Part shown: one piece after another, positions 37,774 to 60,051 of the stretch
How the letters are laid out: each line of letters opens with the position of its first letter
Numbering within the stretch: the first letter of the stretch is position 1
Assembly (NCBI GenBank): GCA_902614945.1
Contig: CACMNE010000007.1
Coordinates: 1,235-65,234 of the forward strand
Direction of reading: 5' to 3'
DNA: 64,000 nt
DNA from: an uncultured Alphaproteobacteria bacterium
Lineage (GTDB): Bacteria > Pseudomonadota > Alphaproteobacteria > Rhodobacterales > Rhodobacteraceae
Notes under the pieces: generated by a model
What the model saw: the letters and a program-made list of their open reading frames with translations, nothing else
Databases searched by the model: none
Told to the model about the DNA's origin: nothing
Program-made: the position numbers and the translations under genes

Positions 37774-37840
37774 CTTTTTGGTACTTTATTACTCTCAATA
37801 CCAGCAATTAAATAAATCTGGGGGTTTTAAAGTGCAAAAA

Positions 37841-41133
<3,293 letters not shown>

Positions 41134-41144
<11 letters not shown>

Positions 41145-44100
41145 AAACCTCAGTAAAATTAAAGCTGATAGTTATAAATTTGTAATTATAACTTTAGATT
41201 CTCATAGTGCAGGTCCAGTTTCAAGAGTACAAGCTAAACTAAAACCATTTTTCCCAACATTAGAGATTACTGTTCATGCAGCAGCAGAATGGGCAGAAAA
41301 CCCTAGTTCTTTAGATGCTGCCAAAAAGGATATATTTGATGCAGATATAATAATAGCTAACCTACTATTTTTAGAAGAGCATGTGAGAGCTATATTACCA
41401 ACACTTAAAACAAAAAGAGAGAATTGTGACGCATTAGTGGGTTGCATATCCTCAAAAGAAGTTGTTTCCCTTACAAAAATGGATCGACTTGATATGAGTA
41501 AACCAACAACAGGTTTTTTGAGTCTATTAAAAAAATTAAGGGGTAGTAGCAAATCAGGTAAGCCGGCTAGTGGAAAAAGGCAAATGTCAATATTAAGGCG
41601 CTTGCCAAAAATATTAAAATTTATTCCCGGAAAAGCTCAAGATGTACGTTCTTATTTTCTTACTATGTTATATTGGCTAGGTGGATCTGACGATAATGTT
41701 GAATCAATGATAATATATTTATGTCAGAAATATGGGAAATTGAAAGGAAAGGGTAATTTAGTTGCAAAACCTCCAATTGAATATCCAGAAACAGGTTTAT
41801 ATCACCCTAAACTGAAATCAAGAGTATCAACAGAAATTCGAGATATTCCTGTTAAAAAAAATGTAAAGGGAAAAGTAGGTCTTCTATTAATGAGATCGTA
41901 TGTTTTATCTGGAGACACAGCTCATTATGATGCAGTAATTAGCGAATTAGAAAGTTTGGATTTACAGGTTATTCCAGCATTTTCAGCCAGCTTAGATTCA
42001 AGACCAGCAATCAATGAATTTTTCTATGTAAATAGTAAATTAAATGTTGATTGCATATTATCTTTAACTGGATTTAGCTTGGTTGGAGGTCCTGCATATA
42101 ATGACAGCCAAGCCGCAGAAGAGATTTTATCTAAATTAGATGTACCATATATTGCTGCACATGCTTTGGAATTCCAAACGCTACCAAATTGGGAAGAAAA
42201 TAATTTAGGTTTGGGACCTGTTGAGACTACAATGCTAGTAGCCTTGCCAGAAATTGATGGTGCGATTGCACCAACCGTATTTGGAGGTAGAGTTGCTCAT
42301 GGTTTGGAAATGCAACCCTGTCATGAAAGAGTTAAAAACTTATCATTAAAAGTAAAAAAATATGTAGATCTTCGCACAAAAAACATTAGTGATAAAAAAA
42401 TATCAATTGTATTATATGGGTTCCCTCCAAATGCAGGTGCAGTTGGTACAGCAGCTTATCTAGATGTTTTTCAATCACTATTTAATACACTTTTAAGGTT
42501 AAAAGAAGAAGGTTATTTTGTAGAACTACCTTCAAGTATTGATGAACTTAAAGAAAATATTCTTAATGGTAATAAAGATCGATATGGACAAGAAGCTAAT
42601 GTATACAAAAGAATTTCTGCTGATGATATAGTTTTAAATGAACCATACCTGAAAGATATTGAGGAGACTTGGGGGCCAGCTCCAGGAAAGCTACAATCAG
42701 ATGGTTCAGGTTTGTTTATTTTAGGCCAGAAATTTGGAAATATATTTATAGGAATTCAACCGGTTTTTGGTTATGAAGGTGATCCTATGAGACTTCTATT
42801 TGAAAAAGGTTTTGCTCCTACACATGCGTTTAATACATTTTACAGATTTATTAGGAATGAAATTAAATCGGATGCGATTATTCATTTTGGAATGCATGGA
42901 GCGCTTGAGTTCATGCCTGGTAAAAAATCTGGTGTCAGCGAAAGTTGTTGGCCAGATAGATTAATTGGGGAAATACCAAATATTTATATTTATGCTGCAA
43001 ATAACCCTAGTGAGGGCTCATTAGCAAAGCGAAGATCCAATGCTGTGATTATCTCCCACCTCACGCCACCTTTATCTAAAGCAGGATTATACAAAGGTCT
43101 TTTAGAGTTAAAAGAATCTCTCATTCAATTTAGACAAGAGCATGACAAAACAAAAAATTTGTCTGATCTGAAACAGCTTATCAAAGATCAAGCCGAAGCT
43201 CTTGAAATTGACTTTGGGAATGATTTTGAAATACTTAAATCTAAACTATATGAATTAGAAGAAGCACTAATCCCAGAGGGGCTTCACATAATTGGATCAC
43301 CACCCTCTAAAAATGCACGAGATAGTTATCTTGACGTAATTCCTGGTTTAGAAAATAAAAAAGATCGCGATCATTTTGATCAGTTGCTGACTGTTGATTG
43401 TGAGCTACAAGGACTAATGGATGCACTTAACGGAAAATATATAAAACCTGTTCCTGGTGGTGATATTATTAGATCTCCAGAAATACTTCCAACAGGAAGA
43501 AATATGCATGCTTTTGATCCATTTCGAATGCCAACAAGTTTTGCAATGCAGGAAGGTAAAAATCAAACTAAAGCATTACTAGAGGCTCAAAGTAAAATGC
43601 CTGAAACAGTAGCAATGGTTCTTTGGGGTTCAGATAATATAAAAACAGATGGTGGTTCTATTGCACAAGCTATGAACCTTATGGGTGCAAAACCATTTTT
43701 TGATGATTATGGAAGACTTTCTGGGGCTGAATTAATTCCGTTAGAAGAATTAGGTAGGCCAAGAATTGATGTTTTGATGACACTATCTGGAATTTTCAGA
43801 GATTTGTTGCCACTACAAATAAAAATGTTGGCAGATGCAGCAAAAAAAGCTGCCTTAGCTGATGAACCCTTGGAGATGAATTATGTAAAACGAAATACAC
43901 TGGACTTTGTTAAAAAACACACTTTTAAAATTGAGCAAGCAGTACTTCGTGTTTTTTCTAATGCGGAGGGAACTTATGGATCAAACGTAAATCATCTTGT
44001 AAGTTCAGCTACTTGGGATGAAGAAGATCAACTAGCAGATACTTACGAAAATCGTAAAAGTTATGCTTATGATTCAAAAGGTAAGTGTTCTCGGCAAACA

Positions 44101-44673
44101 CAATTACTACAAGCAATATTGGAACAAGTTGATTGTACTTATCAAAATTTAGAAAGTGTAGAACTAGGAGTAACAACTGTTGATCATTATTTCGATACTT
44201 TAGGGGGAATAACTAGAGCTGTAAAAAGAGCAAGAGGTGAGGATACACCTGTTTACATAGGTGATCAAACAAGAGGAGGGTCAAAAGTACGAGCACTGGC
44301 AGATCAAATCGCCCTTGAAACTCGCTCAAGGTCTTTAAATCCAAAATGGTTTGAGCCACTACTCAAGCATGGTTATGAGGGGGTAAGACATATTGAAAGT
44401 CAGGTCACAAATACCCTTGGTTGGTCTGCTACTACAGGTCAAGTTGAACCATGGGTTTATGGAAAATTATCAGAAACATTTATCTTAGATGAGGAAATGA
44501 GAAGAAGACTTGCTTCATTGAATCCAGCAGCAAGCTTAAGAGTAGCAAATAGATTGATGGAAGCTCATGATAGGTCTTATTGGGAGCCAGATGAAGAAAC
44601 GCTGGAAGCATTGAGAGATTCACTTGCAGAATTGGAAGATAATCTAGAAGGAGTGAAGCTTGCAGCAGAATAA
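41134..44673 (+). CDS. bchH: Mg-protoporphyrin IX chelatase large subunit H
   Basis: About 1180 aa of the CobN/BchH family ([13 protein letters not shown]..., [14 protein letters not shown]). ATG 41134 overlaps the bchB end by 11 nt. ATG 41116 is also possible. Confidence 0.96.
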
Positions 44674-44684
44674 AAAAATTTTAA

Positions 44685-45626
<942 letters not shown>

Positions 45627-45628
45627 AA

Positions 45629-46318
45629 ATGAGAACTTATTCTCAAAATAGAGATAGAATAGCCGAATACTTCGATAAAACAGGTTTTCGAGCATGGGAA
45701 GCTTTGACAACTGAAACACCTGTATCAAAAATTAGATTAAAAGTTAGAGCAAGTAGAGAGAAGATGAGAAGTAAAATGTTATTACATTTACCAAAGGATC
45801 TCTCTGGAAAAAGAATTTTAGATGCCGGATGTGGTGCTGGCCAATTTTCTATTGAGTTAGCTCTAAGGGGAGCTAATGTTTTAGGTATAGATATTTCATC
45901 GAATCTAATTGAAATAGCTAAAAAAAGATTGCCTAAAAATCTTAAAGAAAATGCTGAATTTATTACATCCGATATGATGCAAAATCATGGAAGTTTTGAC
46001 TACGCTATATTGATGGATAGTTTAATTCATTATCCTGAAAAAGATACTGTTAATATTTTAGAAAACTTACTGAGAAACACTAATGAAAAAATATTATTTA
46101 CCTTAGTTCCTTCAAATTTTATTCTAACATTAAAACTGATGATAGGCCGTCTTTTCCCAAAATCAGATCGTTCTCCTACTTTATCACCATTAAATACCAA
46201 ATCTTTTATTGAAATATATAAAGATAAATTTGAGAGAGAATATAATGCTACTATTTCCAGGATTAGTAAAGTCAATGATCTTTTTTATACATCTGAGTTT
46301 CTAGAATTGAGAAAATGA
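45629..46318 (+). CDS. bchM: Mg-protoporphyrin IX methyltransferase
   Basis: SAM motif ILDAGCGAGQFS. 229 aa, between bchL and lhaA. Confidence 0.93.
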   Translation: MRTYSQNRDRIAEYFDKTGFRAWEALTTETPVSKIRLKVRASREKMRSKMLLHLPKDLSGKRILDAGCGAGQFSIELALRGANVLGIDISSNLIEIAKKRLPKNLKENAEFITSDMMQNHGSFDYAILMDSLIHYPEKDTVNILENLLRNTNEKILFTLVPSNFILTLKLMIGRLFPKSDRSPTLSPLNTKSFIEIYKDKFEREYNATISRISKVNDLFYTSEFLELRK

Positions 46319-47748
46319 TTATTTCTAAAGAACATATATTCAAAATAAGTAAAAATATTTTACCTTTTTCGGATGCTGGAAGTACAAACTTCTCTTTGTT
46401 TCAACTTTTGAGATTATCTCTTTTTCAAATATCTGTAGGAATGGCTACAGTTATGTTAGCAGGTACATTAAATAGAGTAATGATTGTAGAGCTTTTAGTT
46501 CCAGCATCACTAGTGGCTATAATGATTGCAATACCAGTTTTAATTGCGCCACTTAGAACTTTCTATGGCCATAAATCAGACACTTATAAGTCTTTCATTG
46601 GATGGAAAAGAATACCTTATATGTGGTTTGGTAGCTTGTTCCAGTTTGGAGGTCTTGCGATAATGCCTTTTGCCATAATTATACTTTCTGGTGATCAAAC
46701 TGTGGGTCCAAGTTGGGCAGGAGAAGTTTTGGTTGCAATTGCTTTCTTATTTACTGGAATTGGAATGCATATTACTCAAACGGTTGGATTAGCTTTAGCA
46801 GCCGATAGAGCAACAAAAGAAAATCGACCAAGAGTGGTAGCTTTACTTTATTTTATGTTTCTATTTGGAATGGGAATTTCAGCTGTAGTAATTGGTATTT
46901 TATTAGCAGATTTTTCTAAGTTACGTTTAATACAGGTAGTTCAAGGATCCGCAGTACTTACATTAATTCTTAATCTTGTAGCGGTTTGGCGACAGGAACA
47001 AATAATTATTAATCAACAGAAAAATGACAAATCTGAAAAGTTTTTTTTATCATGGAAAAAATTTATTTCTGATCGAAAAACAAAGAGTTTAATTTGGGTT
47101 GTTTTCTGGGGAACTTTGGCTTTTTCAATGCAAGATGTGTTATTGGAACCATATGGTGGTCAAATTTTAGGATTAAGTGTTTCTGAAACAACAAATCTTA
47201 CAGGAGTATGGGCTTTGGGTGCACTTCTTGGTTTGGCACTGGCTGCCAATAATTCAAAAAAGACAATTTCTTCTGTAAGTAATGCAATGACAGCGCTTCT
47301 CATAGGTATAGTAGGTTTCTCTGCCATAATATTTTCAAGCCCTATGCAATTTCCTTTTTTATATTTTCTTGGAACATTATTTATTGGATTTGGAACAGGC
47401 TTATTTTCAGTTTCACTACTAATAATTGCAATGGCATTGTCATCAAAAACTAATTTAGGCAGTGGTTTTATTTTAGGTTCTTGGGGTGCAGCTCAAGCCT
47501 TAGGAGCTGGATTGGGTATAGCTGTGGGTGGAATATTACGTGATGTAGTTAATAAAATCGCGCTCTCTGGTTATTTAGGGTCAACTTTTGAAAACAATTC
47601 GATAGGTTATATTTTTGTATACCACTTGGAAATTTTATTCATTTTTATAACTTTGATTGTCCTTGGGATGCTTTCACAAGAAATAAATAAAGGGAAAATT
47701 AAAGATCATGACCAAAAAAGCTTTGGATTGACTGAAATACCATCATAA
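46315..47748 (+). CDS. lhaA: LH1 assembly factor LhaA (PucC family)
   Basis: 477 aa with about 12 TM helices. ATGA overlap with bchM. Canonical position after bchM. Confidence 0.9.
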   Translation: MIISKEHIFKISKNILPFSDAGSTNFSLFQLLRLSLFQISVGMATVMLAGTLNRVMIVELLVPASLVAIMIAIPVLIAPLRTFYGHKSDTYKSFIGWKRIPYMWFGSLFQFGGLAIMPFAIIILSGDQTVGPSWAGEVLVAIAFLFTGIGMHITQTVGLALAADRATKENRPRVVALLYFMFLFGMGISAVVIGILLADFSKLRLIQVVQGSAVLTLILNLVAVWRQEQIIINQQKNDKSEKFFLSWKKFISDRKTKSLIWVVFWGTLAFSMQDVLLEPYGGQILGLSVSETTNLTGVWALGALLGLALAANNSKKTISSVSNAMTALLIGIVGFSAIIFSSPMQFPFLYFLGTLFIGFGTGLFSVSLLIIAMALSSKTNLGSGFILGSWGAAQALGAGLGIAVGGILRDVVNKIALSGYLGSTFENNSIGYIFVYHLEILFIFITLIVLGMLSQEINKGKIKDHDQKSFGLTEIPS

Positions 47749-47760
47749 TAGGGAAAAAGA

Positions 47761-48405
47761 ATGTATAAGATAAATAATACACCACCAAAAGACATATTAA
47801 GTGTTATTCCTAAAGATGAGGAGATAATTTGGCATGGTAGGCCAGATTTGAGAAGATTTTGTTTAACTGCAATAGGAATAAAGTATATTCTGGTTTATCT
47901 AATTATAATTACCTGTTCTATAATTTACACAAGGTATGGTGATTTCAATTTAATTACTATTTTACAGGTGCTTGTCCCTTATTTATTGAGTTGTTGTTTA
48001 GCTATTATACTACTAGTCATTGTTGGAATTTCACAAGTTTTACCAACAGTTTATGTAATTACAAGTAAGCGAGTAATTATTAAAAGTGGCTTGGCACTAA
48101 TTTTTATGCTTAATGTTCCATTTGATAAGATTGCTAGTATTGACAAAAATCATTATAGTGATGGATCTGGAAATATTTCATTTAAACTTATTAGCAATAA
48201 AAGAGTTCCTTTTTTTGCAAGCTGGCCAAGTGTAAGGCCTTGGTACTTCAGTAATCCTGAGCCAACATTCAGATGTATTGCTGATGTAGATGTTATAGCT
48301 TTAAAATTATCGGAGGCAGCTCAATCTAGAGTTTCTGAAGTAAATTTAAAAAAGATAAATGATATTAAAAACGTTAAAATGCAAGATGGGGGGATAACTG
48401 CATGA
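47761..48405 (+). CDS. puhB: RC assembly protein PuhB
   Basis: 214 aa with two or three TM segments and a PH-like (YdbS-type) domain. Assigned by synteny after lhaA, where puhA would normally intervene. Confidence 0.8.
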   Translation: MYKINNTPPKDILSVIPKDEEIIWHGRPDLRRFCLTAIGIKYILVYLIIITCSIIYTRYGDFNLITILQVLVPYLLSCCLAIILLVIVGISQVLPTVYVITSKRVIIKSGLALIFMLNVPFDKIASIDKNHYSDGSGNISFKLISNKRVPFFASWPSVRPWYFSNPEPTFRCIADVDVIALKLSEAAQSRVSEVNLKKINDIKNVKMQDGGITA

Positions 48406-48851
48406 GAGAAAACACTGGGACACATGAAAAAGAAGTAATTCCTATACGATTAGTACAAGCAGTTGGAGCATTACTTTTAGTCACATTATTAATGGTTGGA
48501 TATGCAAGACTGTCTGATATGCCACTTATTGGAACTCCTAAACAAGTTCCAGTGGTTTCTGAAACTTCCTTAGAATTTATTAAGCAGAAAAATGGATCTG
48601 TTTCTATATTTAACAAAAATGGTCAGGAAATTATTAATTCAAGGGCTGGTCCATATGGTTTTATAGTAGTAGTATATAATGGTTTTATGTCAGAAAGGAA
48701 AAAGAAAGAAATTGATATTAACAATCCACTAAAACTTATTCAATATGAAGACGGTAGACTTACAATTGTTGATGAATCTTCTTCTTGGGATATGCATCTA
48801 AATAGTTTTGGGTCTATGAATACAGCTGTATTTAAGGAATTAATAAAATAA
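48402..48851 (+). CDS. puhC: RC assembly protein PuhC
   Basis: 149 aa with a single N-terminal TM anchor (AVGALLLVTLLMVGY) plus a soluble domain. ATGA overlap with puhB. Confidence 0.8.
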   Translation: MRENTGTHEKEVIPIRLVQAVGALLLVTLLMVGYARLSDMPLIGTPKQVPVVSETSLEFIKQKNGSVSIFNKNGQEIINSRAGPYGFIVVVYNGFMSERKKKEIDINNPLKLIQYEDGRLTIVDESSSWDMHLNSFGSMNTAVFKELIK

Positions 48852-48853
48852 AA

Positions 48854-49162
48854 ATGGGGGGATATTTAAAAATGATAAGAAGAAGAAAAGAAATGACGCC
48901 TTGTACCATAGAAGTATCTCATACTTTTGAGAGTTTGCATGCTCATGTTCGCTTTAATAATGGAGCAATTGTTCATCCGGGAGATGAGGTTATAGTTCAT
49001 GGAGATCCTGTTATTGCTCCCTATGGTAAGGTAGTAATTGAGGACAGAATAGCTACTATAAAAAGAGCAGTTTGGTTTCATAGATTATGGACAAAAATTA
49101 CAGGAAATTTTGAATTTATGGAAATTTGTGAATTTTCTTTTTCAGAGGAGATTTCATTATGA
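48854..49162 (+). CDS. Conserved PGC hypothetical protein between puhC and acsF
   Basis: 102-aa soluble ORF. ATG 48872 (MIRRRK...) follows GGGGGA and may be the true start. The stop overlaps the acsF ATG (ATGA), which implies co-translation with the puh/acsF genes. Confidence 0.65.
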   Translation: MGGYLKMIRRRKEMTPCTIEVSHTFESLHAHVRFNNGAIVHPGDEVIVHGDPVIAPYGKVVIEDRIATIKRAVWFHRLWTKITGNFEFMEICEFSFSEEISL

Positions 49163-50238
49163 AAGAAGTAGATTATCAAAATGAAAGAGTTGATTCAATT
49201 AATGAAACAACCGCTATGGCACATGAAACGACACTACTAAATCCTCGTTTTTATACAACTAATTTTAAAGAAATGGATGAACTTAATGTAGAAAGTGTTA
49301 GAAAAGATTGGGATGAATTAATTTCTGAAATGAAATCAGATCCAAATCGTACACACTTCAAAAAAACAGAAGATTGGGATCAGATAGATTTTAAAAGTTT
49401 AGAACCCGAATTAAGGAAAGAGTTTATTGATTTTTTAGTAAGTTCATTAACAGCAGAATTTTCAGGATGTGTTCTTTACAAGGAAATGAAGAGAAGGGGA
49501 ACTAATAAGGAAATTTGTGAATTATTTTCATACATGTCTAGAGATGAAGCTCGGCACGCTGGTTTTATTAATGATGCTCTTAGGGAAGCTGGTATAGGAG
49601 TAAACCTTGGTTTTCTTACTAGAAAAAAAAATTATACATATTTTACGCCTAAATTTATTTACTATGCCACGTATTTATCAGAAAAAATTGGTTATGCTAG
49701 ATATATAACAATTTATAGACATTTGGAAAAAAATCCTGATAAGCGATTTCATCCAATTTTTAAGTGGTTTGAAAAATGGTGTAATGATGAATTTAGACAT
49801 GGGGAAGCATTTGCTTTAATTATGAAGTCTGATCCTAAATTTACATCTGGATTAAATATATACTGGATTAAATTTTTCTTAGTTGCAGTCTTTGCTACGA
49901 TGGTTATTCGAGACCATGCGAGACCTGCTTTTCATAAAGCACTTGATGTTGATATTGAGTGGTATGATGAAACTGTTCTTAGAATTACTTCAGAAATTAC
50001 TCGACAAGTTTTCCCAATTGAAATTGATTTAGAAAATCCAAAATGGAAATCTGGATTGAAAAAATTATGTGTTACTTTTGATAGTATGGAAAAAGCAAAA
50101 AGGTCAGGTGGTATTAGGGGAAAATTAAAATATTATGCATATTCTACAAAAGCATTAATGATTTTTGTGGGACTTTATTTAATTCCTTCAAAGAAAAATT
50201 TAGTTCCTGAAACTTCAAGACTTCAACCTAGCTATTAA
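49159..50238 (+). CDS. acsF: Aerobic Mg-protoporphyrin IX monomethyl ester oxidative cyclase
   Basis: Di-iron ExxH motifs (SRDEARHAGF and NDEFRHGEAF) and an N-terminal LLNPRFYTT block. Confidence 0.95.
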   Translation: MKEVDYQNERVDSINETTAMAHETTLLNPRFYTTNFKEMDELNVESVRKDWDELISEMKSDPNRTHFKKTEDWDQIDFKSLEPELRKEFIDFLVSSLTAEFSGCVLYKEMKRRGTNKEICELFSYMSRDEARHAGFINDALREAGIGVNLGFLTRKKNYTYFTPKFIYYATYLSEKIGYARYITIYRHLEKNPDKRFHPIFKWFEKWCNDEFRHGEAFALIMKSDPKFTSGLNIYWIKFFLVAVFATMVIRDHARPAFHKALDVDIEWYDETVLRITSEITRQVFPIEIDLENPKWKSGLKKLCVTFDSMEKAKRSGGIRGKLKYYAYSTKALMIFVGLYLIPSKKNLVPETSRLQPSY

Positions 50239-50250
50239 CCTGGAGAATTA

Positions 50251-51111
50251 ATGTATCAAGGAATATTTACAGTTTTTAGTATACCCTGGGTGGCTGCATT
50301 CACAGCAGTATTTTTTTGGTGGTTTTTAACAGGATTGATACTATTCATTGTTAAAAAGGTAGATGAATTGAATCATAAAGCACATATCTTTGTTACACTG
50401 ATTTTGAGTCCAGTAATTTTCTTAGGAATTTATTTATTTTTTAATTCTCTTCCAACGATAACACTGTCATCAATTTATAGTTCATTTTTTGCAAGCTTGT
50501 TAATTTGGGCTTGGTTTGAACTTGCATTTTTGTCTGGATTAATCACGGGGCCTAGTAAACAGCTATGTCCTAAGGATATTAAACAAATGAAACGTTTTGG
50601 TTATGCTTTATCTAATATTGCTTATTCAGAGTTAATTCTCTTTATTACTTTATTAATTATGTTTTATTTTTCATTTAATGCTGAAAATACAGTAGGTTTA
50701 TGGACATTTTGGATTTTATTTTTTGCTAGAATTTGTGCGAAGTTGAATTTATTCCTGGGAGTGCCAAACGTGAATACAGAATTCTTACCTTCTCCTGTTG
50801 TGCATCTTGCTAGTTACTTTAGGGTTGGGAGTACAAGTTGGTTTTTTCCAGTTTCAATATCATTGATATCATTTACCCTATTTTTCTTAGTAGATAGTAT
50901 TTTTAATGCAAACAACCAAACTCCATCAGTGATAGGCTATACTTTGTTAGCGTCACTAACTACTTTAGCCTTAATTGAGCACTGGTTTATGGTTGTACCA
51001 TTAAGAGATGCAGAACTCTGGAAATGGATGTTGCCAAAGCAAAAAAAAGATACAAATATAAATAATGAATCTAGTGAAAATTTTAGTTCGGAGAAAATTC
51101 ATGGATTATGA
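50251..51111 (+). CDS. puhE: PuhE membrane protein
   Basis: 286 aa with about 7 TM helices, located between acsF and hemA as in Roseobacter-type PGCs. Confidence 0.82.
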   Translation: MYQGIFTVFSIPWVAAFTAVFFWWFLTGLILFIVKKVDELNHKAHIFVTLILSPVIFLGIYLFFNSLPTITLSSIYSSFFASLLIWAWFELAFLSGLITGPSKQLCPKDIKQMKRFGYALSNIAYSELILFITLLIMFYFSFNAENTVGLWTFWILFFARICAKLNLFLGVPNVNTEFLPSPVVHLASYFRVGSTSWFFPVSISLISFTLFFLVDSIFNANNQTPSVIGYTLLASLTTLALIEHWFMVVPLRDAELWKWMLPKQKKDTNINNESSENFSSEKIHGL

Positions 51112-52318
51112 CCATTTATTTAATTCACAACTTCAAAAGTTAAAAGACGAAGGAAATTACAGAATTTTTGCCGAACTTGAAAGATGTCAAGGTAACTTTC
51201 CTAAGGCTAAAAATTATTTCAAAAGTAATAAAACTTCAGAGGTTACCGTTTGGTGTTCAAATGATTATTTAGGTATGGGACAAAATCCAAGTGTTTTATC
51301 ATCAATAAAAAATGCCTTGAATGAGTGTGGAGCTGGAGCTGGAGGGACAAGGAATATTTCTGGAACAAACCACTATCATGTTCTACTTGAAAAAGAATTA
51401 GCAGATTTGCATAAAAAGGAGTCTGCATTATTGTTTACATCAGGATATATTTCAAATTGGGCAACTCTTTCAACTTTAGGTGCACGGTTGCCAGGCTGTA
51501 CTATTTTATCTGATGAAAAAAACCATGCTTCTATGATAGAGGGAATAAGACATTCTCGAGCAGGTAAGCTAATTTGGAAACATAATGATCCAGAAGATTT
51601 AAGAAATAAATTATCCTCTTTACCCAATGATGCTCCAAAAATAGTTGCATTTGAAAGTGTTTATTCTATGGATGGCGATATTGCGCCAATAGATGAAATT
51701 TGTGATGTTGCAAAAGAATTTGGTGCAATGACTTATTTAGATGAGGTCCATGCTGTAGGTCTTTATGGAAAAAGTGGAGGTGGAATCTCAGAACTAGAAA
51801 ATGTAGCACATAAAGTTGATCTTATTGAGGGTACTCTTGGTAAAGCTTATGGTGTAGTAGGTGGCTATATTACGGGCTCAAATGTGCTTTGTGATTTTAT
51901 TCGTTCATTTTCTAGTGGTTTTATTTTTACAACTGCTCTTCCTCCCGCAGTTGCAGCCGGTGCCTTAAGTTCAGTGAAACATTTAAAAACAAGTCAAATT
52001 GAACGTGATAATCAAAAAGTGAAGGTAACTTATTTAAGGAGCAAATTGGATTCTATGGGTATTCCTCATTTAATGAATCCAAGCCATATAGTTCCTGTTA
52101 TGATCAAAGATTCTATTAAATGCAAACAAATAAGTGATATTTTACTTAATGATTACTCAATCTATGTTCAGCCAATTAATTATCCCACTGTGCCCAAAGG
52201 TACTGAAAGGTTGAGATTTACACCATCGCCATTACATACATATGATGATATTGATTATCTAGTTAAAAGTTTAGCTTCTCTATGGAAGCAGTGTGCCTTA
52301 TCTAGGGTAGTTGCTTAA
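51101..52318 (+). CDS. hemA: 5-aminolevulinate synthase
   Basis: MDYDHLFNSQLQKLKDEGNYRIFAELER..., PLP lysine region EGTLGKAYG, SMDGDIAP. ATG 51101 follows GGAG and overlaps the puhE end by 11 nt. Confidence 0.95.
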   Translation: MDYDHLFNSQLQKLKDEGNYRIFAELERCQGNFPKAKNYFKSNKTSEVTVWCSNDYLGMGQNPSVLSSIKNALNECGAGAGGTRNISGTNHYHVLLEKELADLHKKESALLFTSGYISNWATLSTLGARLPGCTILSDEKNHASMIEGIRHSRAGKLIWKHNDPEDLRNKLSSLPNDAPKIVAFESVYSMDGDIAPIDEICDVAKEFGAMTYLDEVHAVGLYGKSGGGISELENVAHKVDLIEGTLGKAYGVVGGYITGSNVLCDFIRSFSSGFIFTTALPPAVAAGALSSVKHLKTSQIERDNQKVKVTYLRSKLDSMGIPHLMNPSHIVPVMIKDSIKCKQISDILLNDYSIYVQPINYPTVPKGTERLRFTPSPLHTYDDIDYLVKSLASLWKQCALSRVVA

Positions 52319-52397
52319 ATAGTTTGCCATTATCTTTTAATTAGAGTAAATCATTTTCGTTAAAGATATAAATATAATTTTTTTATATGAGGGAAAA

Positions 52398-52841
52398 ATG
52401 AGAAAGCTTTTTTTAATTATTACTACAATAATTTTTACTTTTACTTTTAATTCTGTTTTTGCTGCTGAAATTGAAGTTAAAATGCTTAATAAAGATGCGG
52501 ACGGTAATAAAATGATATTTGAGCCAATGCTAATAATGGCAGAAAAGGGAGATACGGTTACTTTTTTACCCACGGAGAAAGGACATATGGCAGCGAGTAT
52601 TAAAGGTATGTTACCAAAAGGTATTAAAAAGTTTAAAGGTAAAATCAATAAACCAGTAAGTATCGTGGTTTCAGAAGATGGCCTTTATGGTGTGAAATGT
52701 ACACCACATTTAGCAAATGGAATGGTAGCACTTATAGCTGTTGGTGATGTTAATACAGATGGTTTCTTAGACGGAGTTAAATTACCAAAGAAATCAAAAG
52801 CTAGAATGGAAGAAATGCTCGCTCAATTAGCAGCAAAGTAA
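52398..52841 (+). CDS. Pseudoazurin (type 1 blue copper protein), periplasmic
   Basis: Signal peptide ending SVFA-AE. EIEVKMLNKDADGNKMIFEP..GDTVTFLPTEKGH..YGVKCTPHLANGMVALIAVG matches the pseudoazurin pattern, with His, Cys, His and Met copper ligands. Confidence 0.9.
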   Translation: MRKLFLIITTIIFTFTFNSVFAAEIEVKMLNKDADGNKMIFEPMLIMAEKGDTVTFLPTEKGHMAASIKGMLPKGIKKFKGKINKPVSIVVSEDGLYGVKCTPHLANGMVALIAVGDVNTDGFLDGVKLPKKSKARMEEMLAQLAAK

Positions 52842-52845
52842 ATGT

Positions 52846-53544
52846 TTAAGTATAGATAAGCTGCCTTAATTCTGGTGGTAGCTTATCTTTTGTAAAATCA
52901 TCGCAAATAAAGTCAGCTTCTTCAAAATTATCATCAATATGATATTTACTAGGGGAACAAATTGTTTTTAATTTTGCTCTTTTGGCTGATATAAGTCCAT
53001 TATTACTATCCTCTAAAGCTATACATTCCTCTGGTCTTAATGATAATTGATTTAAAGCGAGTAAATATAATTCAGGGTCGGGCTTTTTTCTCTTTACCAT
53101 ATCACCTGTGGCTATAACTTTAAAAATTAAATCTGGTTTAATTTCAAAACATTTTTTAAATAATGCTTCTACATTCATCAGACTAGTGGATGTGGATATA
53201 GCTAATTGAATTTTGCTTTTTAAGGCATTATCTATAAGCGATTTTATGCCTGGTCTGAGCTGAAGTAATCCTTCATCCACCCATTTGTTATATAGTTCAT
53301 TTTTTTTTGAATGAATTCTCGATATATCATTAATATCCAAATGGTAATTTTTGGAATTAAAATTTTCTTTGTAGTGTTTTAAGCGTTCTTTACCTCCAGT
53401 AACTTTTAATAATTCTTTGTACAATTTCTTTGACCAGTTCCAGTTAATACCTTCGTCAGAAAATATACTATTATATGCTTTTCTATGTAATTCTTCTGTT
53501 TCAGCGATTGTTCCATCAACATCAAAAATTAATGCTTTTACCAA
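52846..53544 (-). CDS. HAD-superfamily phosphatase, CbbY-like
   Basis: Motif I FDVDGTIAETE, followed by TGGKERL and EDSNNGLISAKRA. Resembles CbbY/beta-phosphoglucomutase-type HAD proteins. Confidence 0.75.
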   Translation of the reverse strand: MVKALIFDVDGTIAETEELHRKAYNSIFSDEGINWNWSKKLYKELLKVTGGKERLKHYKENFNSKNYHLDINDISRIHSKKNELYNKWVDEGLLQLRPGIKSLIDNALKSKIQLAISTSTSLMNVEALFKKCFEIKPDLIFKVIATGDMVKRKKPDPELYLLALNQLSLRPEECIALEDSNNGLISAKRAKLKTICSPSKYHIDDNFEEADFICDDFTKDKLPPELRQLIYT

Positions 53545-53642
53545 TAAAAATTCCTTTCAGGATTTCATTTTCTAATTGAATATACTTAGGATATTTTGTT
53601 TTCTTTAACAATAAAATTTTTTCAAATTTAGGAGAGGTCAAA

Positions 53643-54011
53643 ATGGAAGATTTTTTTGAAGTCGGATTAAGAGAAAGAAAAGCAACTTTAGGTGAGAAAT
53701 ATGTAGAAAAAAATTTAAAGGAAGCAGATGAATTCACAAAACCTTTTCAGGAAGCTATGACGTCTTGGTGTTGGGGCTTTGGATGGGGTGACAAGAGTAT
53801 TGATAGAAAAACTAGATCAATGATGAACCTAGCAATGATTGGAGCTCTTGGTAAATTGAATGAGTGGGAAATACATTGTAGAGGAGCTTTGAAAAATGAT
53901 GTCTCTAAAGAACAAATAAGAGCTATAATTCATGTAATTGGTATCTATTGTGGTGTTCCCCAAGCTTTAGAATGCTTTAGAATTGCAAAAAAAGTTTTTT
54001 CAGAAAGGTAG
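53643..54011 (+). CDS. Carboxymuconolactone decarboxylase (CMD) family protein
   Basis: 122 aa with WCWGFGWGD..IDRKTRSMMNLAMIGALG...EWEIHCRGALKNDVSKEQIRAIIHVIGIYCGVP, typical of gamma-CMD/AhpD-like proteins. Confidence 0.8.
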   Translation: MEDFFEVGLRERKATLGEKYVEKNLKEADEFTKPFQEAMTSWCWGFGWGDKSIDRKTRSMMNLAMIGALGKLNEWEIHCRGALKNDVSKEQIRAIIHVIGIYCGVPQALECFRIAKKVFSER

Positions 54012-54105
54012 ATACCAGAGAGAGATTTGTTAAAAATCCTTTTAATTATTTATTAATTTATTTAATTATAGTGTAAGACTAAAATTTATTATTTAAAAAT
54101 TAAAA

Positions 54106-55584
54106 ATGCTAAAAAAGAATTCAACTAAATTAAAAAAAGAAAATTTTGTACGATTTTATTTAAATGATAATTTGATTGAAAAATCGATTAGTGACCCACA
54201 ACAGACATTATTAGATTTTTTAAGAATTGATCAAAATTTAAAAGGGACAAAAGAAGGTTGTGCTGAAGGTGATTGTGGTGCGTGTACAGTACTAATTGGT
54301 AAAGTTAATAAATATCATAAAGTTTCATATAGGACCGCAAATTCATGCATAGTTTTCTTACCATCAATTGATTGTTCACACTTGATTACAGTAGATGGTT
54401 TGTCTAAAGGCTTGGAAGAACTCCATCCAGTACAAGAGGCAATGGTAAGAAATTCTGGGGCTCAGTGTGGTTTTTGCACACCTGGTTTTGTGATGTCAAT
54501 ATACGGATTGTTTTTAAAAACCAAAAAACCCAATAGAGCTCAAATCTTGAATTCAATTCAAGGTAATCTTTGTCGATGTACGGGATATGGTCCAATAATT
54601 TCAGCTGCCGAAGATCTTAGTAAAAGTTTTTCTTGTTCAAATGATTTTCTGATAAAAAATAACAAAAAATGGGCTCAGAAATTAACATATTTAATAGAAA
54701 ATGGTTCTAAAGAAAAAGAAAATAATCCGAATTACTCTATTCCAAAAAATATAAGGGAATTAAAGGAAGTCTTGTATCATAAGAAAAATTCAACAATAGT
54801 CGCTGGTTCAACTGACGTAGGTCTATGGGTAAATAAACAATTTAAAGAAATAAGGCCTATAGTATTTATAAATCAAATTGATGAATTAAAGTATATTAAG
54901 ATTTATAATGATAAAATTTTACTAGGTTCCTTAGTTACTTATTCAGATTTTCAAGATTTTGTAACTAAATATTTTCCAAATTTAAATGAGTACATAAACA
55001 GAATTGGAGGGGATCAAATAAGAAATATGGGCACTATTGGTGGTAACATTGCAAATGGATCTCCAATTGGTGATATAGCACCACTTTTTTTAGCTCTTGG
55101 TGCAAAAATGAAAATCATCGGTAAAGAAACAACCCGAAAAATAAATGTAGAAAATTTTTTTATTGAATATGGTTTGCAAGCAATAAATGCAAAAGAATAT
55201 ATTCATGATTTTGAAATTCCAAATCCAAAAACAAAAAAATTTGATTTTATAGCTTATAAAGTGTCAAAAAGACGTTATGAAGATATTTCTACTATCACAG
55301 GAGCATTTTTCTTTGAAAAAAAATTGAATAAGAAATCTAATGTTAGGTTTGCCTATGGAGGAATGGCAGGAATCCCAAAGAGATCCAAATCTTTGGAAAA
55401 TTTATTTAACCAAAAATTTGAAAGTAATTTCGATGAAAAAAGTATTGAGATGGCTATTAAAAATGACTTTCAGCCACTTACTGACTGCAGAGCGACTTCA
55501 CTTTATCGTCATAGAGTTGCAGAAAATCTTTTTAAAAAATTTTCATGCTTTGTTAAAAATATACCTAATATAAAAGAAGTGTAA
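54106..55584 (+). CDS. xdhA: Xanthine dehydrogenase small subunit (2x[2Fe-2S] + FAD)
   Basis: Cluster motifs GCAEGDCGACTV and CGFCTPGF...CRCTGYGPI, followed by an FAD-binding domain (VAGSTDVGLWV). Confidence 0.92.
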   Translation: MLKKNSTKLKKENFVRFYLNDNLIEKSISDPQQTLLDFLRIDQNLKGTKEGCAEGDCGACTVLIGKVNKYHKVSYRTANSCIVFLPSIDCSHLITVDGLSKGLEELHPVQEAMVRNSGAQCGFCTPGFVMSIYGLFLKTKKPNRAQILNSIQGNLCRCTGYGPIISAAEDLSKSFSCSNDFLIKNNKKWAQKLTYLIENGSKEKENNPNYSIPKNIRELKEVLYHKKNSTIVAGSTDVGLWVNKQFKEIRPIVFINQIDELKYIKIYNDKILLGSLVTYSDFQDFVTKYFPNLNEYINRIGGDQIRNMGTIGGNIANGSPIGDIAPLFLALGAKMKIIGKETTRKINVENFFIEYGLQAINAKEYIHDFEIPNPKTKKFDFIAYKVSKRRYEDISTITGAFFFEKKLNKKSNVRFAYGGMAGIPKRSKSLENLFNQKFESNFDEKSIEMAIKNDFQPLTDCRATSLYRHRVAENLFKKFSCFVKNIPNIKEV

Positions 55585-55597
55585 AAGGTTTAGGGAA

Positions 55598-57934
55598 TTG
55601 AAGCAAATTAGAAGAAAAGAAGGAATACTAAGGTCTACTGAAGAGGATATAGTGAGGCATGAGTCCCTTAACAAATTTGTCAGTGGTAAAGCAGAATATA
55701 TAGATGATTTAGCTGAGGAGCATGGAACTTTACATGCTTACGTAGGAAAATCTGACTTTGCAAAGGGAATAATACTAGATATTGACCTAAAAGAAGTTTG
55801 GGCTTCAGAGGGTGTCGTAGATATATTTACAGCGAAAGATTTACCTGGGTCGAATGATATAAGCCCCACCTCTATGAGAGATGAACCAGTTTTAGTAGAC
55901 AAAGATGTTTCTTTTTTTGGACAACCGCTATTTGTAGTAGTCGCTAAAACAAGACTTGAAGCCAGAAAAGCGGCTTCCTTAGTAAAGATAAAAAAAAATA
56001 TTCACAACCCTCTACTAGATATACATAATATTAATAATAAAAATCCAGAAATAGTCACAACTCCGTTGAAATTAGAGAGAGGTGATGTATGCGAATATCT
56101 AAAAAAATCAAAATACAAAATAAGTGGTGAAATTTATATTGGAGGGCAAGATCATTTCTATTTGGAAAGCCACATTGCCATGGCGAGAATTGAAGAAAGT
56201 GAAGAGATAATAATTCACTCTTCAACCCAGCATCCTACCGAAGTACAACATATGGTGGCTAAAGTATTAGATATTCCATTTAACAAAGTTATTGTAAAAG
56301 TTAAAAGAATGGGTGGAGGATTTGGAGGAAAAGAAACTCAGTCGAATTTTTTTGCAGTAATTGCTGCTTTAGCTGTAGTAAGAAATGGAACTGCAGTTAA
56401 AATAAGACCTGATAGAGATGATGACATGATTATGACCGGTAAAAGGCACCCATTTCATATATCTTACAATGTTGGTTTCGAAAAAAATGGAGAAATAATG
56501 GCTGTTGATGCATTATTAAGTGCAGATTGTGGATTTTCTTCTGATCTTTCTGGACCTATTACTGATCGAGCATTATTTCATTCTGATAATTGTTATTTTT
56601 ATCCAAATGTGCGACTTATTTCTAGACCACTTAAAACAAATAAAGTTTCTAATACTGCATTTCGTGGTTTTGGGGGTCCCCAAGGTATGATGTTAGCTGA
56701 AAGAGTTATCCAAGAGGTTGCCTTTTTTCTTGGAAAGGATCCACTTGATATTAAAAAAATGAATCTATATGGGACAGGTAAAAAGTCAATATCACCGTAC
56801 TATCAAAAGATTTCTGATAATATTTCAAAGCGAATTATAATGGAATTAGAAAATTCTTCTAATTATAAAAAAAGAAGAAAAGAAGTTCTTATATTTAATA
56901 AAAATAATATTTTTTTTAAAAAAGGTATTGCTCTTACCCCTGTAAAATTTGGAATATCTTTTACTGCTACATGGTTTAATCAAGGTGGTGCATTAGTTCA
57001 TGTTTATACTGATGGGTCAGTAATTGTTAATCATGGTGGAACTGAAATGGGTCAGGGTTTGCATACTAAAGTTTTAGGAATAATAACTAAGGAGTTGGGG
57101 GTAAGTCTTGATAAAATAAAAATAACAGATACTGATACAAGTAAGATTGCAAATACCTCCGCTACGGCTGCTTCGTCTGGTTCAGATTTAAATGGAATGG
57201 CAGCTTTTAAAGCAGCAAAAAAGATTAAAAAAAGAATATTAAATTTTATAACAAAAAGATATGGTGTATCTCCAAAAAATATTAACTTTAAAAATAATTT
57301 TATTCTAACTCCAGATAAAATTTATCCCTTTCATGAAATTGTTAAAGAGGCATATTTGGAAAGGGTTCAGCTTTGGGATTCTGGATTTTATAAAACTCCA
57401 AAAATTCATTGGGACAGAAAAAAAGCAAAGGGCAAACCTTTTTACTATTATAGTTATGGTGCTGCTGTTTCTGAAGTTACAATTGATATTTTAACTGGCG
57501 AATACAAGGTGAATAGGGTTGATATATTGCATGATGTTGGTAAGTCTCTAAATAAAACAATAGATATAGGACAAATTGAGGGGGGGTTCATCCAGGGAAT
57601 GGGTTGGTTAACTTGTGAAGAACTTTTTTGGGATCAAGATGGTTTTTTAAAAACTCATGCCCCTTCTACTTATAAAATACCCCTTGCGTCTGATAGACCT
57701 GAAATTTTTAATATCCAAATAGCAAGTTGGTCAAAAAATAGTGAAAAAACAATTAAACGATCCAAGGCTGTCGGGGAACCACCTTTTATGTTGGCAATAT
57801 CTGTACATGAAGCTCTTCAAATGGCTGTAGCTTCTATTGCTGATTACAAAGTAAAGCCAAAAATGAATGCTCCAGCTACACCAGAAGAGGTTTTATCATC
57901 AATTTATGATATTAAGAAAGAGTATCAATTTTGA
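55598..57934 (+). CDS. xdhB: Xanthine dehydrogenase molybdopterin-binding subunit
   Basis: 778 aa with GGGFGGKETQ, AFRGFGGPQG and GTEMGQGLHTK blocks. TTG start. Confidence 0.93.
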   Translation: MKQIRRKEGILRSTEEDIVRHESLNKFVSGKAEYIDDLAEEHGTLHAYVGKSDFAKGIILDIDLKEVWASEGVVDIFTAKDLPGSNDISPTSMRDEPVLVDKDVSFFGQPLFVVVAKTRLEARKAASLVKIKKNIHNPLLDIHNINNKNPEIVTTPLKLERGDVCEYLKKSKYKISGEIYIGGQDHFYLESHIAMARIEESEEIIIHSSTQHPTEVQHMVAKVLDIPFNKVIVKVKRMGGGFGGKETQSNFFAVIAALAVVRNGTAVKIRPDRDDDMIMTGKRHPFHISYNVGFEKNGEIMAVDALLSADCGFSSDLSGPITDRALFHSDNCYFYPNVRLISRPLKTNKVSNTAFRGFGGPQGMMLAERVIQEVAFFLGKDPLDIKKMNLYGTGKKSISPYYQKISDNISKRIIMELENSSNYKKRRKEVLIFNKNNIFFKKGIALTPVKFGISFTATWFNQGGALVHVYTDGSVIVNHGGTEMGQGLHTKVLGIITKELGVSLDKIKITDTDTSKIANTSATAASSGSDLNGMAAFKAAKKIKKRILNFITKRYGVSPKNINFKNNFILTPDKIYPFHEIVKEAYLERVQLWDSGFYKTPKIHWDRKKAKGKPFYYYSYGAAVSEVTIDILTGEYKVNRVDILHDVGKSLNKTIDIGQIEGGFIQGMGWLTCEELFWDQDGFLKTHAPSTYKIPLASDRPEIFNIQIASWSKNSEKTIKRSKAVGEPPFMLAISVHEALQMAVASIADYKVKPKMNAPATPEEVLSSIYDIKKEYQF

Positions 57935-58746
57935 TTTTGACTATCGAAGAACTTCAAAAATTTTTAAAAGATAATAAAGATGTTGCTTATTGCAAAATTT
58001 TAAAAAATTTAGGCTCCTCTCCAAGGGAGAAAGGAGCTTGGATGTTAATTAGTAAGCAGGGGAAAATTTTTGGAACAATAGGAGGTGGACAATTAGAATA
58101 TAATCTTATTCAAAGTGTTATGAAACAAGACTGGAAAGTTGATTTCAACTTAGAGATTGAAACGACTTTGGGACCAGATATTGCACAATGTTGTGGTGGA
58201 AAAGTCATTATTTCAATACTTAAAATGAATTATACGTTTTCCAAACATTTATTAGAAAAATTTAAAAAGGATATATCTAAACTTACTCAAGTACTTATTT
58301 TTGGTGCAGGTAATGTTGGAACATCATTGGCTTTACAAATGTACAATTTACCTTTCAAAATAAAGTTGATTGATAATAGAGAAAATTTCATTTCAAAACT
58401 AAATTTACCTATTGAAAAAAAATTTAGCTTAATTCCAGAGCAAGAAGTTCGTGCAGCAAATGCTTGCTCTTGTTACATAATTACCACTCATGATCATGGC
58501 CTTGATTTCTTACTGTGCTATGAAATTTTAAAAAGGAATGATGCTTCTTATATTGGAATGATTGGTTCAAAAACTAAAAGAGGAACTTTAAAAAATTGGC
58601 TTAGAAAAAAAGGTATTAATGATATTTCAAATGTAAATATACCAATAGGTAAATCATTAGTTGATACTTATGATAAAAGACCTGAAATTATATCAGCCCA
58701 CATAATTTCAGAAATGTTATCCATAATTGAAAAAAAAGCGACATAG
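57931..58746 (+). CDS. xdhC: Xanthine dehydrogenase accessory protein XdhC
   Basis: 271 aa with GTIGGGQLE and a Rossmann-like IFGAGNVG. TTGA overlap with xdhB. Confidence 0.85.
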   Translation: MILTIEELQKFLKDNKDVAYCKILKNLGSSPREKGAWMLISKQGKIFGTIGGGQLEYNLIQSVMKQDWKVDFNLEIETTLGPDIAQCCGGKVIISILKMNYTFSKHLLEKFKKDISKLTQVLIFGAGNVGTSLALQMYNLPFKIKLIDNRENFISKLNLPIEKKFSLIPEQEVRAANACSCYIITTHDHGLDFLLCYEILKRNDASYIGMIGSKTKRGTLKNWLRKKGINDISNVNIPIGKSLVDTYDKRPEIISAHIISEMLSIIEKKAT

Positions 58747-58770
58747 AAATTATATAATTAGGAAAATTAC

Positions 58771-60051
58771 ATGATTTTAAAAGGAAGAATTTTTCATTTC
58801 TTAGATAAAGGAAATATAGACAATCCAGAAAATTCTTTTGAATATATTGAAAAAGGCGGATTAGTAATTTCAGGGGAAAAAATAATCGATATTGGAGAAT
58901 TTAATAAAATAATTCTTCAATATCCAAATTATGAAGTTATAGATCATAAAAATAATATAATTTTCCCTGGTTTTATTGATTTACACAATCACTTTCCTCA
59001 AGTTCAGGTAATTGGTTCATATGGCACACAACTTTTAGAGTGGTTAAGCAAATATACTTTTCCTGAAGAATCTAAATTTATATCTAAAGATTATTCTAAA
59101 CAGCAAGCTAAGAAATTTATAAAATTACTTATCAGCAATGGCACTACTACTTCGGTATCATTTTGTTCTGTCCATAAGGAGTCTGTAAATGCTCTTTTTG
59201 AAGAAGCTTCTAAAAAAAACATGTGTATGATTGCTGGTAAAGTAATGATGGATAGAAATGCTCCTAAGAACCTTTTAGATACTCCTCAGACCTCATTTCA
59301 AGATACACAGGACTTAATTTCAAAATGGCACAAAAAAAATAGGAACTTTTATGCGATAACACCAAGGTTTGCAATAACTTCATCTCCAGAGCAATTAAAA
59401 TTAGCAGGTGATTTGTCAAATAGTAATCCTACTTGTTATATTCAAACCCATCTTTCAGAAAATAGAGATGAAATAGAATATACTTTATCTCTATATCCAA
59501 AATTTACCCACTATCTGGATATTTACCTTAAAAATGGTATTGTTAATGACAGATCTTTAATGGGACATTCAATTCACCTCAACGATGATGAAATTTCAAT
59601 ATTTAATCAAACTCGAGCCGTTGCAGTTCATTGTCCAACTTCAAATCTTTTCCTAGGTAGTGGTTTATTCCCATTTGAAAAGTTATATAATTCCAACGTC
59701 AATTTGGGTATTTCTACTGATGTTGGTGGGGGAACGTCTTATTCAATGCTAAACACTTTAGATGCTGCTTATAAAATTCAGCAATTTAGAAATTTTAGTT
59801 TAAATCCAAAATATTCCTTTTATTGGTCCACACTTGGTAATGCAAAATCTTTAGGATTAGAAGATGAGATTGGAAGTTTTAAAAAAGGAAGTTTTGCTGA
59901 TATTATAGTTTTGGACAGTTCTAGTGATATGGTTTCAAAAATTAGAATGGAAACTTGTGAGACACTTACTGAAGAATTATTTATTTTGCAAACTTTAGGA
60001 GGAGCGCATTCAATTAAATCCGTTTATATTGCAGGTAATTTATTATTGTAA
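58771..60051 (+). CDS. guaD: Guanine deaminase (amidohydrolase)
   Basis: PGFIDLHNHFPQ metal-binding HxH, HLSEN and STDVGGG. Follows xdhABC. Confidence 0.88.
   Translation: MILKGRIFHFLDKGNIDNPENSFEYIEKGGLVISGEKIIDIGEFNKIILQYPNYEVIDHKNNIIFPGFIDLHNHFPQVQVIGSYGTQLLEWLSKYTFPEESKFISKDYSKQQAKKFIKLLISNGTTTSVSFCSVHKESVNALFEEASKKNMCMIAGKVMMDRNAPKNLLDTPQTSFQDTQDLISKWHKKNRNFYAITPRFAITSSPEQLKLAGDLSNSNPTCYIQTHLSENRDEIEYTLSLYPKFTHYLDIYLKNGIVNDRSLMGHSIHLNDDEISIFNQTRAVAVHCPTSNLFLGSGLFPFEKLYNSNVNLGISTDVGGGTSYSMLNTLDAAYKIQQFRNFSLNPKYSFYWSTLGNAKSLGLEDEIGSFKKGSFADIIVLDSSSDMVSKIRMETCETLTEELFILQTLGGAHSIKSVYIAGNLLL

Follow-up and report, generated by a model that had tools for sequence, protein, structure and literature searches.

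Which protein returns electrons to the photosynthetic reaction centre (RC) when none of the usual donor genes accompanies the photosynthesis genes? This question is raised by the stretch of DNA analysed here, 64 kb of the contig CACMNE010000007.1 from an uncultured alphaproteobacterium (hereafter the window), which has a GC content of ~32% and holds a complete photosynthesis gene cluster (PGC) of the Rhodobacteraceae type, spanning bchO (8564..9463, minus strand) to hemA (stop codon at 52318). The gene that directly follows hemA encodes a pseudoazurin, a copper protein, and a first-pass annotation of the window had proposed it as a candidate electron donor to the RC. Our examination of this proposal covered the window and, in its relatives, at most 10 kb of DNA flanking each match.

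The gene after hemA and the position of cycA

The first-pass annotation had stated that a cytochrome donor gene lies in or beside PGCs of the Roseobacter type. This is correct and can be put more exactly, as cycA, the cytochrome c2 gene, immediately follows hemA. In the gene order of the Dinoroseobacter shibae PGC, hemA (Dshi_3546) is gene 49 and cycA (Dshi_3547) is gene 50 (Brinkmann et al. 2018, PMC6052148). The plasmid-borne PGCs of Roseobacter litoralis, Tateyamaria omphalii, Thalassococcus sp. S3 and Roseinatronobacter sp. S2 likewise encode a CxxCH protein of 139–158 residues with the cytochrome c2 motif GPNLYG, 74–114 nt after hemA and on the same strand; no CxxCH cytochrome was found after hemA in two Sulfitobacter plasmids. 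A metagenome scan with a PuhE alignment yielded 80 PGC borders, to which the plasmids were added, and the 65 PuhE-anchored loci with a complete hemA and enough downstream DNA were kept. The slot after hemA was occupied by cycA in 40 of these loci, by a pseudoazurin gene in three and by neither gene in 22. A fourth case of pseudoazurin in the slot, with a truncated hemA match, falls outside the 65.

The pseudoazurin gene of the window occupies the same slot, directly after hemA, on the same strand and at the end of the run from bchF to the puh genes. We verified the distance of 79 nt between the hemA stop codon and the pseudoazurin ATG, and thus the placement at the PGC border given in the first-pass annotation; it is the widest gap in the same-strand run from bchF to pseudoazurin. 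Adjacency alone was dropped as proof of function within the window's own clade, in which the downstream HAD-CMD-xdh genes are equally syntenic, and for this reason the case rests on the identity of the slot together with its independent recurrence.

Two pseudoazurin lineages in the same slot

Twelve loci with a pseudoazurin gene in the slot, the window included, form one low-GC clade with Sec-type proteins, which we termed PAZ1. A second lineage, PAZ2, was founded on the locus L128 (loci are numbered with the prefix L), whose protein of 172 residues has a twin-arginine signal (TRRDALAG) and the canonical motifs KGHN and CKPHANMGM; its identity to the window protein is only 44%, and it stands apart as an outlier in the tree of pseudoazurins. 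A protein search seeded with L128 retrieved a whole marine family. In PAZ2 the pseudoazurin gene lies 99–135 nt after hemA at PGC borders (L128 and L175–L180; every member of at least 66% identity that was looked up), and this link is kept despite changing downstream genes, which may be zinc-uptake genes with a Fur-family regulator, an oligopeptide transporter, gcvP or a second pseudoazurin gene.

In a neighbour-joining tree of PuhE and HemA from 82 loci with 200 bootstraps, PAZ1 was monophyletic in 199 and PAZ2 in all 200 replicates, and none of the 200 united PAZ1 and PAZ2 as one exclusive group. PAZ2 was sister to a cycA-carrying PGC in 126 of the 200. Two PGC lineages thus recruited different pseudoazurins, independently of each other, into the usual place of cycA. 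For Erythrobacter sp. JL475, a pseudoazurin gene has been mentioned, uninterpreted, as part of the PGC (PMC4919336), which may be a third case of such a replacement. The pseudoazurin family is abundant in marine metagenomes, with several clusters at 90% identity comprising 280–660 member sequences.

Two further observations were made on the proteins with a twin-arginine (Tat) signal. The locus L180 (8001..9334) carries two tandem Tat-type pseudoazurin genes after hemA, one with the motifs KGHN and ANMGM and the other with KGHF and AANGM. Remoter Tat-type relatives (57–58% identity) had no PGC nearby, and in one of these loci (L181, 1356..3072) the pseudoazurin gene is two genes away from a gene for flavodoxin, an iron-sparing protein, a weak hint that ties these cupredoxins to low-iron physiology.

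Identity of the protein and its copper site

The description of the gene product as a secreted pseudoazurin with an intact His/Cys/His/Met copper site was borne out by several lines of analysis. The protein matched the NCBIfam equivalog TIGR02375 (pseudoazurin) over all 116 profile positions (1–116) with 141.4 bits, against a cut-off of 109.85, and the Pfam Copper-bind family with E = 8e-13. Solved pseudoazurins aligned with it over their full length at ~50% identity (E = 5e-33). In the AlphaFold2 model (pLDDT 89) the strands fall within residues 24–115 and a helix spans 131–145, in keeping with the eight-stranded beta-sandwich and C-terminal helical extension that distinguish pseudoazurin from plastocyanin and amicyanin. 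The 27 best Foldseek matches in the PDB were all pseudoazurins (TM-score 0.87–0.91), whereas plastocyanins reached only ~0.72. The predicted copper ligands His63, Cys101, His104 and Met109 (His40, Cys78, His81 and Met86 in the usual numbering) have the canonical spacing, align with those of the solved structures and are invariant in 22 relatives. The ratio of nonsynonymous to synonymous substitution (dN/dS) of 0.03–0.14 across relatives indicates that the gene is real.

In pseudoazurins the first His ligand is usually followed at once by Asn or Asp, which takes part in second-sphere hydrogen bonding; the window protein has Met64 at this position. We regard this residue as a variant within the pseudoazurin family and as no ground for exclusion from it. 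Among 240 homologues (P0001–P0240) and the proteins derived from the loci, the positions of Met64 (52587..52589) and Asn107 (52716..52718) covary near-perfectly, in that Asn or Asp after the His goes with a residue other than Asn two positions before the Met ligand, and Met, Phe or Tyr after the His goes with Asn there. This exchange took place in PAZ1 (Met/Asn) and a further time in Tat-type proteins (Phe or Tyr/Asn), among them the second of the tandem copies in L180. It may retune the copper site. Pseudoazurins bind copper, have a blue spectrum and have a midpoint potential near +230 to +280 mV; in the proposed role, the potential of the window protein would be expected to fall between those of cytochrome c1 (~+270 mV) and the special pair of the RC (P/P+, ~+450–500 mV).

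The precursor begins with a predicted signal peptide (Table 1). The solved mature pseudoazurins begin to align at residues 23–25 of the precursor, which fits such a peptide, and the model places an N-terminal helix of low pLDDT at residues 2–18. The predicted mature protein is basic, with a computed isoelectric point of 9.2, a net charge of +4 and 18 Lys, and in our own reading of the alignment it has the equivalents of the canonical lysines K10, K38, K57 and K77. These properties are those expected of a small secreted redox protein, with 125 residues in its mature form and a putative basic docking surface.

Proposed role and alternative explanations

No pufC or pufX gene was found in the window. 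The pufM gene (27540..28505) is followed after 2 nt by puhA (28508..29263) and then by dxs, and a further open reading frame (ORF) has no room. One of the two genes occupies the place after pufM in all 44 Rhodobacteraceae PGCs analysed by others (PMC6052148). Because both are absent here, the RC has to be served by a donor that is either soluble or anchored in the membrane. A scan for CxxCH proteins and a tblastn search with four cytochrome c2 proteins, which gave only E > 2, detected no gene for cytochrome c2, cytochrome cy or HiPIP in the 64 kb, and gene order and tblastn thus agree with the first-pass annotation on the lack of pufC, pufX and cycA. In an alignment, PufL has equivalents of the docking residues that we take to be Tyr L162 and Asp L155, which do not discriminate because they are conserved whatever the donor.

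Since pseudoazurin occupies the cycA slot and was swapped in twice independently, we consider it somewhat probable that it is a copper stand-in for cytochrome c2, carrying electrons from the bc1 complex to the RC and to oxidases; copper probably takes the place of haem iron in returning electrons to the RC. After Sec-dependent export and copper loading, the protein would accept a single electron from the cytochrome c1 subunit of bc1, diffuse along the periplasmic face of the membrane and re-reduce the photo-oxidised special pair (P+) of an RC-LH1 complex (RC with light-harvesting complex 1) devoid of PufC and PufX, thereby closing the light-driven cycle. Its gene would be co-expressed with the PGC. 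In the dark, pseudoazurin would probably also feed the terminal oxidases, like the cytochrome c2 of Rhodobacter, which would explain its retention in non-photosynthetic relatives.

Other explanations of the gene are available, and two of them fared poorly. The established partners of pseudoazurin are NirK, cd1 nitrite reductase and NosZ, and four canonical pseudoazurin genes had the NirK motif HNIDFH in their 10-kb neighbourhoods (Mameliella, Epibacterium, Maritimibacter and a metagenome-assembled genome (MAG) of the Hyphomicrobiales); the gene might accordingly be a plain neighbour of the PGC whose product serves one of these enzymes encoded elsewhere, as the first-pass annotation had offered as its alternative. 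However, the motif was absent from the window and from the 10-kb neighbourhoods of ~45 PAZ1 and PAZ2 loci, the annotated neighbourhoods of relatives contained no copper-oxidase or nosZ Pfam families, and no linkage to nirK, nirV, nnrR or nos genes was seen at the examined loci. The subfamily of the window protein is distinct from the nirK-linked subfamilies, and the hosts are bacteria of the oxic surface ocean (Tara and GORG sources). With these results, we set this alternative aside as most improbable. It is also very improbable that the real donor is a secreted monohaem cytochrome of 122 residues, unmentioned in the first-pass annotation, and that pseudoazurin is unrelated to photosynthesis. 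The window encodes no CxxCH protein besides this cytochrome, and its gene lies 38 nt from bchO, which would suit a donor, but the gene is directly upstream of an FccB/SoxF-type flavoprotein gene on the same strand, an fccA/fccB-like pair in the usual arrangement of flavocytochrome c sulfide dehydrogenase, and the pair is retained in species without a PGC (FccB 89% identical). Comparison of the cytochrome with cytochrome c2 gave nothing significant (E > 2), and its Pfam cytochrome scores were below the cut-offs.

The main rival is a purely respiratory role, in which pseudoazurin would only shuttle electrons from the bc1 complex to oxidases or a peroxidase, re-reduction of P+ would fall to a cytochrome c2 or cy whose gene lies elsewhere, and the adjacency to hemA would be inherited. 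A series of observations weighs against pseudoazurin as the RC donor, and the first five of them favour this rival. The PGC has been lost in two species, L013 (cluster2_bin.51) and L015 (GCA_014239455.1), with the pseudoazurin gene intact, and the dN/dS of their pseudoazurins is 0.12 at a dS of 0.28, compared with 0.12 for the neighbouring CMD gene and 0.11 for xdhB; this persistence of purifying selection after PGC loss shows that the protein has an RC-independent function and is no dedicated RC donor. In ~20 more single-cell genomes of marine Rhodobacteraceae, the gene for the PAZ1-type protein has no PGC gene in its 10-kb surroundings. Throughout PAZ1, the downstream HAD-CMD-xdh genes are conserved equally with the upstream PGC, so that the adjacency to hemA in the window's clade could be plain inherited synteny. 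No PpsR/CrtJ site (TGT-N12-ACA) was found upstream of pseudoazurin; the only match nearby falls inside its coding region, and the window total of 19 matches against 15 expected is at chance level. In a deeper PAZ1 subclade (L006, L017 and L018), hemA and pseudoazurin are kept apart by a small gene on the other strand and therefore do not form one transcript there. Furthermore, a search for a decayed cycA in the larger gaps between hemA and pseudoazurin (L006, L016, L017, L018 and L103) gave nothing significant, these gaps holding only a conserved small opposite-strand ORF, and cycA or a cytochrome cy gene may be present elsewhere in the genome.

A purely respiratory role nevertheless leaves unexplained why a second, unrelated subfamily is found in the same slot and stays there while the downstream genes change, and why this slot is the cycA place of most relatives; in addition, 64 kb including the whole PGC hold no alternative donor gene. 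We regard it as rather unlikely. The cytochrome c2 of Rhodobacter also serves respiration and has its own promoters, and the limiting evidence is compatible with a cytochrome c2-like role, yet pseudoazurin is no dedicated photosynthesis component. Thus, of the proposal that it is a copper donor to the RC, the part that stands is the candidate replacement of cytochrome c2, supported by the slot, the two lineages and the lack of nirK, while a donor dedicated to the RC is contradicted by its retention after PGC loss. The same three findings, slot, independent lineages and no nirK nearby, turn a neighbour by chance into a well-founded candidate replacement. For the wider group, the case is about evenly balanced that aerobic anoxygenic phototrophs among the open-ocean Rhodobacteraceae swapped cytochrome c2 for a cupredoxin as cyclic carrier at least twice independently. 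Scarcity of iron would be a plausible driver of such a swap, which may involve a retuned copper site with a hydrophobic residue instead of Asn41 and with Asn instead of Met84.

Decay of the PGC in relatives

The two species without a PGC constitute a natural knockout of the cluster (L013, 1390..10435; L015, identical with L001, 675..10435), of which a further metagenome contig (L002) is another instance. The 44-kb PGC has shrunk to fragments of bchO, crtD, puhA and hemA, with crtE, dxs, idi and pseudoazurin intact. The gene order is EamA, fccB, cytochrome, bchO fragment, crtD fragments, crtE and a puhA fragment of 27 residues, followed by dxs, idi, the 3' fragment of hemA, pseudoazurin, HAD, CMD and xdh. 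The hemA stubs differ in length between the two species (84 and 46 residues), so the decay went on after these had split. The FccB-adjacent cytochrome of the PGC-less relatives has 230 residues (L015, 2849..3541), compared with 122 in the window, and carries an additional domain at the N-terminus with similarity to cytochrome c2 (E = 4e-15 against the CycA of Thalassococcus).

Layout of the window and the upstream region

The features of the window are listed in Table 1.

Table 1. Coordinates and strands of the pseudoazurin gene, the PGC and other features of the window
Feature	Position	Strand	Remarks
Pseudoazurin gene	52398..52841	+	ATG start; precursor of 147 residues, mature protein of ~125 residues
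Sec-type signal peptide MRKLFLIITTIIFTFTFNSVFA, then AEIEV...	52398..52463	+	Predicted; read from the sequence
Copper ligand His63 (His40 in usual numbering)	52584..52586	+	Invariant column; clade signature KGH-M-AAS
Ligand loop CTPHLANGM (Cys101, His104, Met109)	52698..52724	+	Asn107 in place of the usual Met84
hemA–pseudoazurin intergenic region	52319..52397	+	79 nt
hemA (5-aminolevulinate synthase)	51101..52318	+	TIGR01821, 647 bits; last canonical PGC gene
PGC segment 1, bchO-D-I-crtA		-	Profile matches
PGC segment 2, crtI-B-tspO		+	Profile matches
PGC segment 3, crtC-D		-	Profile matches
PGC segment 4, crtE-F-bchCXYZ-pufQ-B-A-L-M-puhA-dxs		+	Profile matches
PGC segment 5, idi-bchP-pucC-bchG-ppsR-ppaA		-	Profile matches
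PGC segment 6, bchF-N-B-H-L-M-lhaA-puhB-puhC-orf102-acsF-puhE-hemA	37778..52318	+	Pseudoazurin is the last member of the run
pufL, pufM, puhA (RC genes)	26642..29263	+	TIGR01157, TIGR01115, TIGR01150
Secreted monohaem c-type cytochrome, 122 residues, CTTCH	8157..8525	-	CxxCH scan and translation; opposite PGC border
FccB/SoxF-type flavoprotein gene	6875..8137	-	Pfam; 122-residue cytochrome directly upstream, same strand

The start of hemA was inferred from homologues and gives an overlap of 11 nt with puhE. The position of puhA right after pufM and the direct succession of lhaA and puhB (27540..29322 and 46315..48405) suggest a third type of PGC in the Rhodobacteraceae. This arrangement is common to the close relatives L004 and L008–L014, and the canonical lhaA-puhA order is kept in the deeper PAZ1 subclade (L006, L017 and L018). 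Near-identical DNA is held by the single-cell genome AG-891-A21, labelled "uncultured Alphaproteobacteria bacterium", and related MAGs are labelled Rhodobacteraceae or Paracoccaceae. On the 3' side of pseudoazurin (53643..60051) lie a CMD/PcaC-like gene, xdhA-xdhB-xdhC and an amidohydrolase gene (probably guanine deaminase), a block that looks like a purine-catabolism cluster and is syntenic across all close relatives.

The first-pass annotation had assigned the pseudoazurin gene its own Shine-Dalgarno sequence and a TATAAT hexamer, and both are positioned as described. In an alignment of eight close relatives, the Shine-Dalgarno sequence GAGGGA (52389..52394, 3 nt before the ATG) was conserved; the hexamer (52373..52378) was not. 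Scans for promoters and terminators (37400..53000 and 51800..53700) returned counts at shuffle expectation, and with the unconserved hexamer this leaves the claim of an own promoter without support in either direction. The sole hairpin after pseudoazurin (52860..52879) is weak and lies within the convergent HAD gene. A block AATTAGAGTAAA (52339..52350) is conserved in the close PAZ1 relatives L008 and L010–L015, the PGC-less ones included, and no enrichment of it was found elsewhere in the window. Paired TGT-N12-ACA palindromes are present in the crtA/crtI, crtD/crtE, bchC and bchF promoter regions (13022..13073, 18607..18648, 20699..20742 and 37588..37773), so that the classical regulon layout of the PGC is intact in this genome of 32% GC. 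The ORF that intervenes between hemA and pseudoazurin in the deeper PAZ1 subclade (L006, 9519..9698, minus strand; the gaps of L017 and L018) encodes ~60–70 residues with a hydrophobic C-terminal tail and is conserved.

Comparison with known donors

Cytochrome c2 (CycA), as known from Rhodobacter, Dinoroseobacter and Roseobacter, is encoded in the same slot as pseudoazurin, after hemA, on the same strand and with a gap of ~60–120 nt, and both are small, basic, secreted one-electron carriers, c2 serving the RC and respiration. It differs in having haem c and another fold, with no sequence relationship, and its donor role is experimental, whereas that of pseudoazurin is predicted from genes. The pseudoazurins of denitrifiers (Paracoccus pantotrophus 1ADW, Alcaligenes faecalis 1PAZ and Achromobacter cycloclastes 1BQK) are 47–51% identical to the window protein and share with it the four copper ligands, the fold with the C-terminal helix and the lysine ring; in contrast, the window gene is found in the context of a PGC instead of nir or nos genes, and its product has Met after the His ligand and Asn at residue 84. 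The bc1 complex of Paracoccus can hand its electrons to pseudoazurin or to cytochrome c550, which substitute for each other.

The alternation of plastocyanin and cytochrome c6 in cyanobacteria and algae is likewise one of a cupredoxin and a c-type cytochrome as soluble RC donors, in which the copper protein spares iron. Those proteins serve photosystem I, a type I RC, with electrons from cytochrome b6f, and their genes often coexist and are switched by copper, whereas the replacement considered here would be a fixed difference between lineages. In Chloroflexus and Roseiflexus, auracyanin is a blue copper protein proposed as periplasmic carrier to the type II RC of an anoxygenic phototroph (PMC10873879). 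It belongs to another cupredoxin subfamily, is membrane-tethered and works with alternative complex III instead of bc1; its RC, unlike that of the window, has a bound tetrahaem subunit, and the role of auracyanin is itself debated. HiPIP, cytochrome c8 and cytochrome cy show that the RC donor of purple bacteria has repeatedly been replaced by non-orthologous proteins, all of them iron proteins and none a cupredoxin. To our knowledge, the experimentally established soluble donors to the purple-bacterial RC (cytochromes c2, c8 and cy, and HiPIP) all contain iron. A full-text literature search found no report of pseudoazurin or another cupredoxin as donor to a proteobacterial RC; what comes closest is the auracyanin of Chloroflexi and the plastocyanin of oxygenic phototrophs.

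If the proposed role of pseudoazurin is true, the copper donor would be a new class of RC donor in purple bacteria and the purple-bacterial counterpart of the plastocyanin/cytochrome c6 alternative. Aerobic anoxygenic phototrophs make up a sizeable share of surface-ocean bacteria; they would then share the trade of copper for iron that phytoplankton make with plastocyanin, and their use of light would be linked to the supply of iron and copper.

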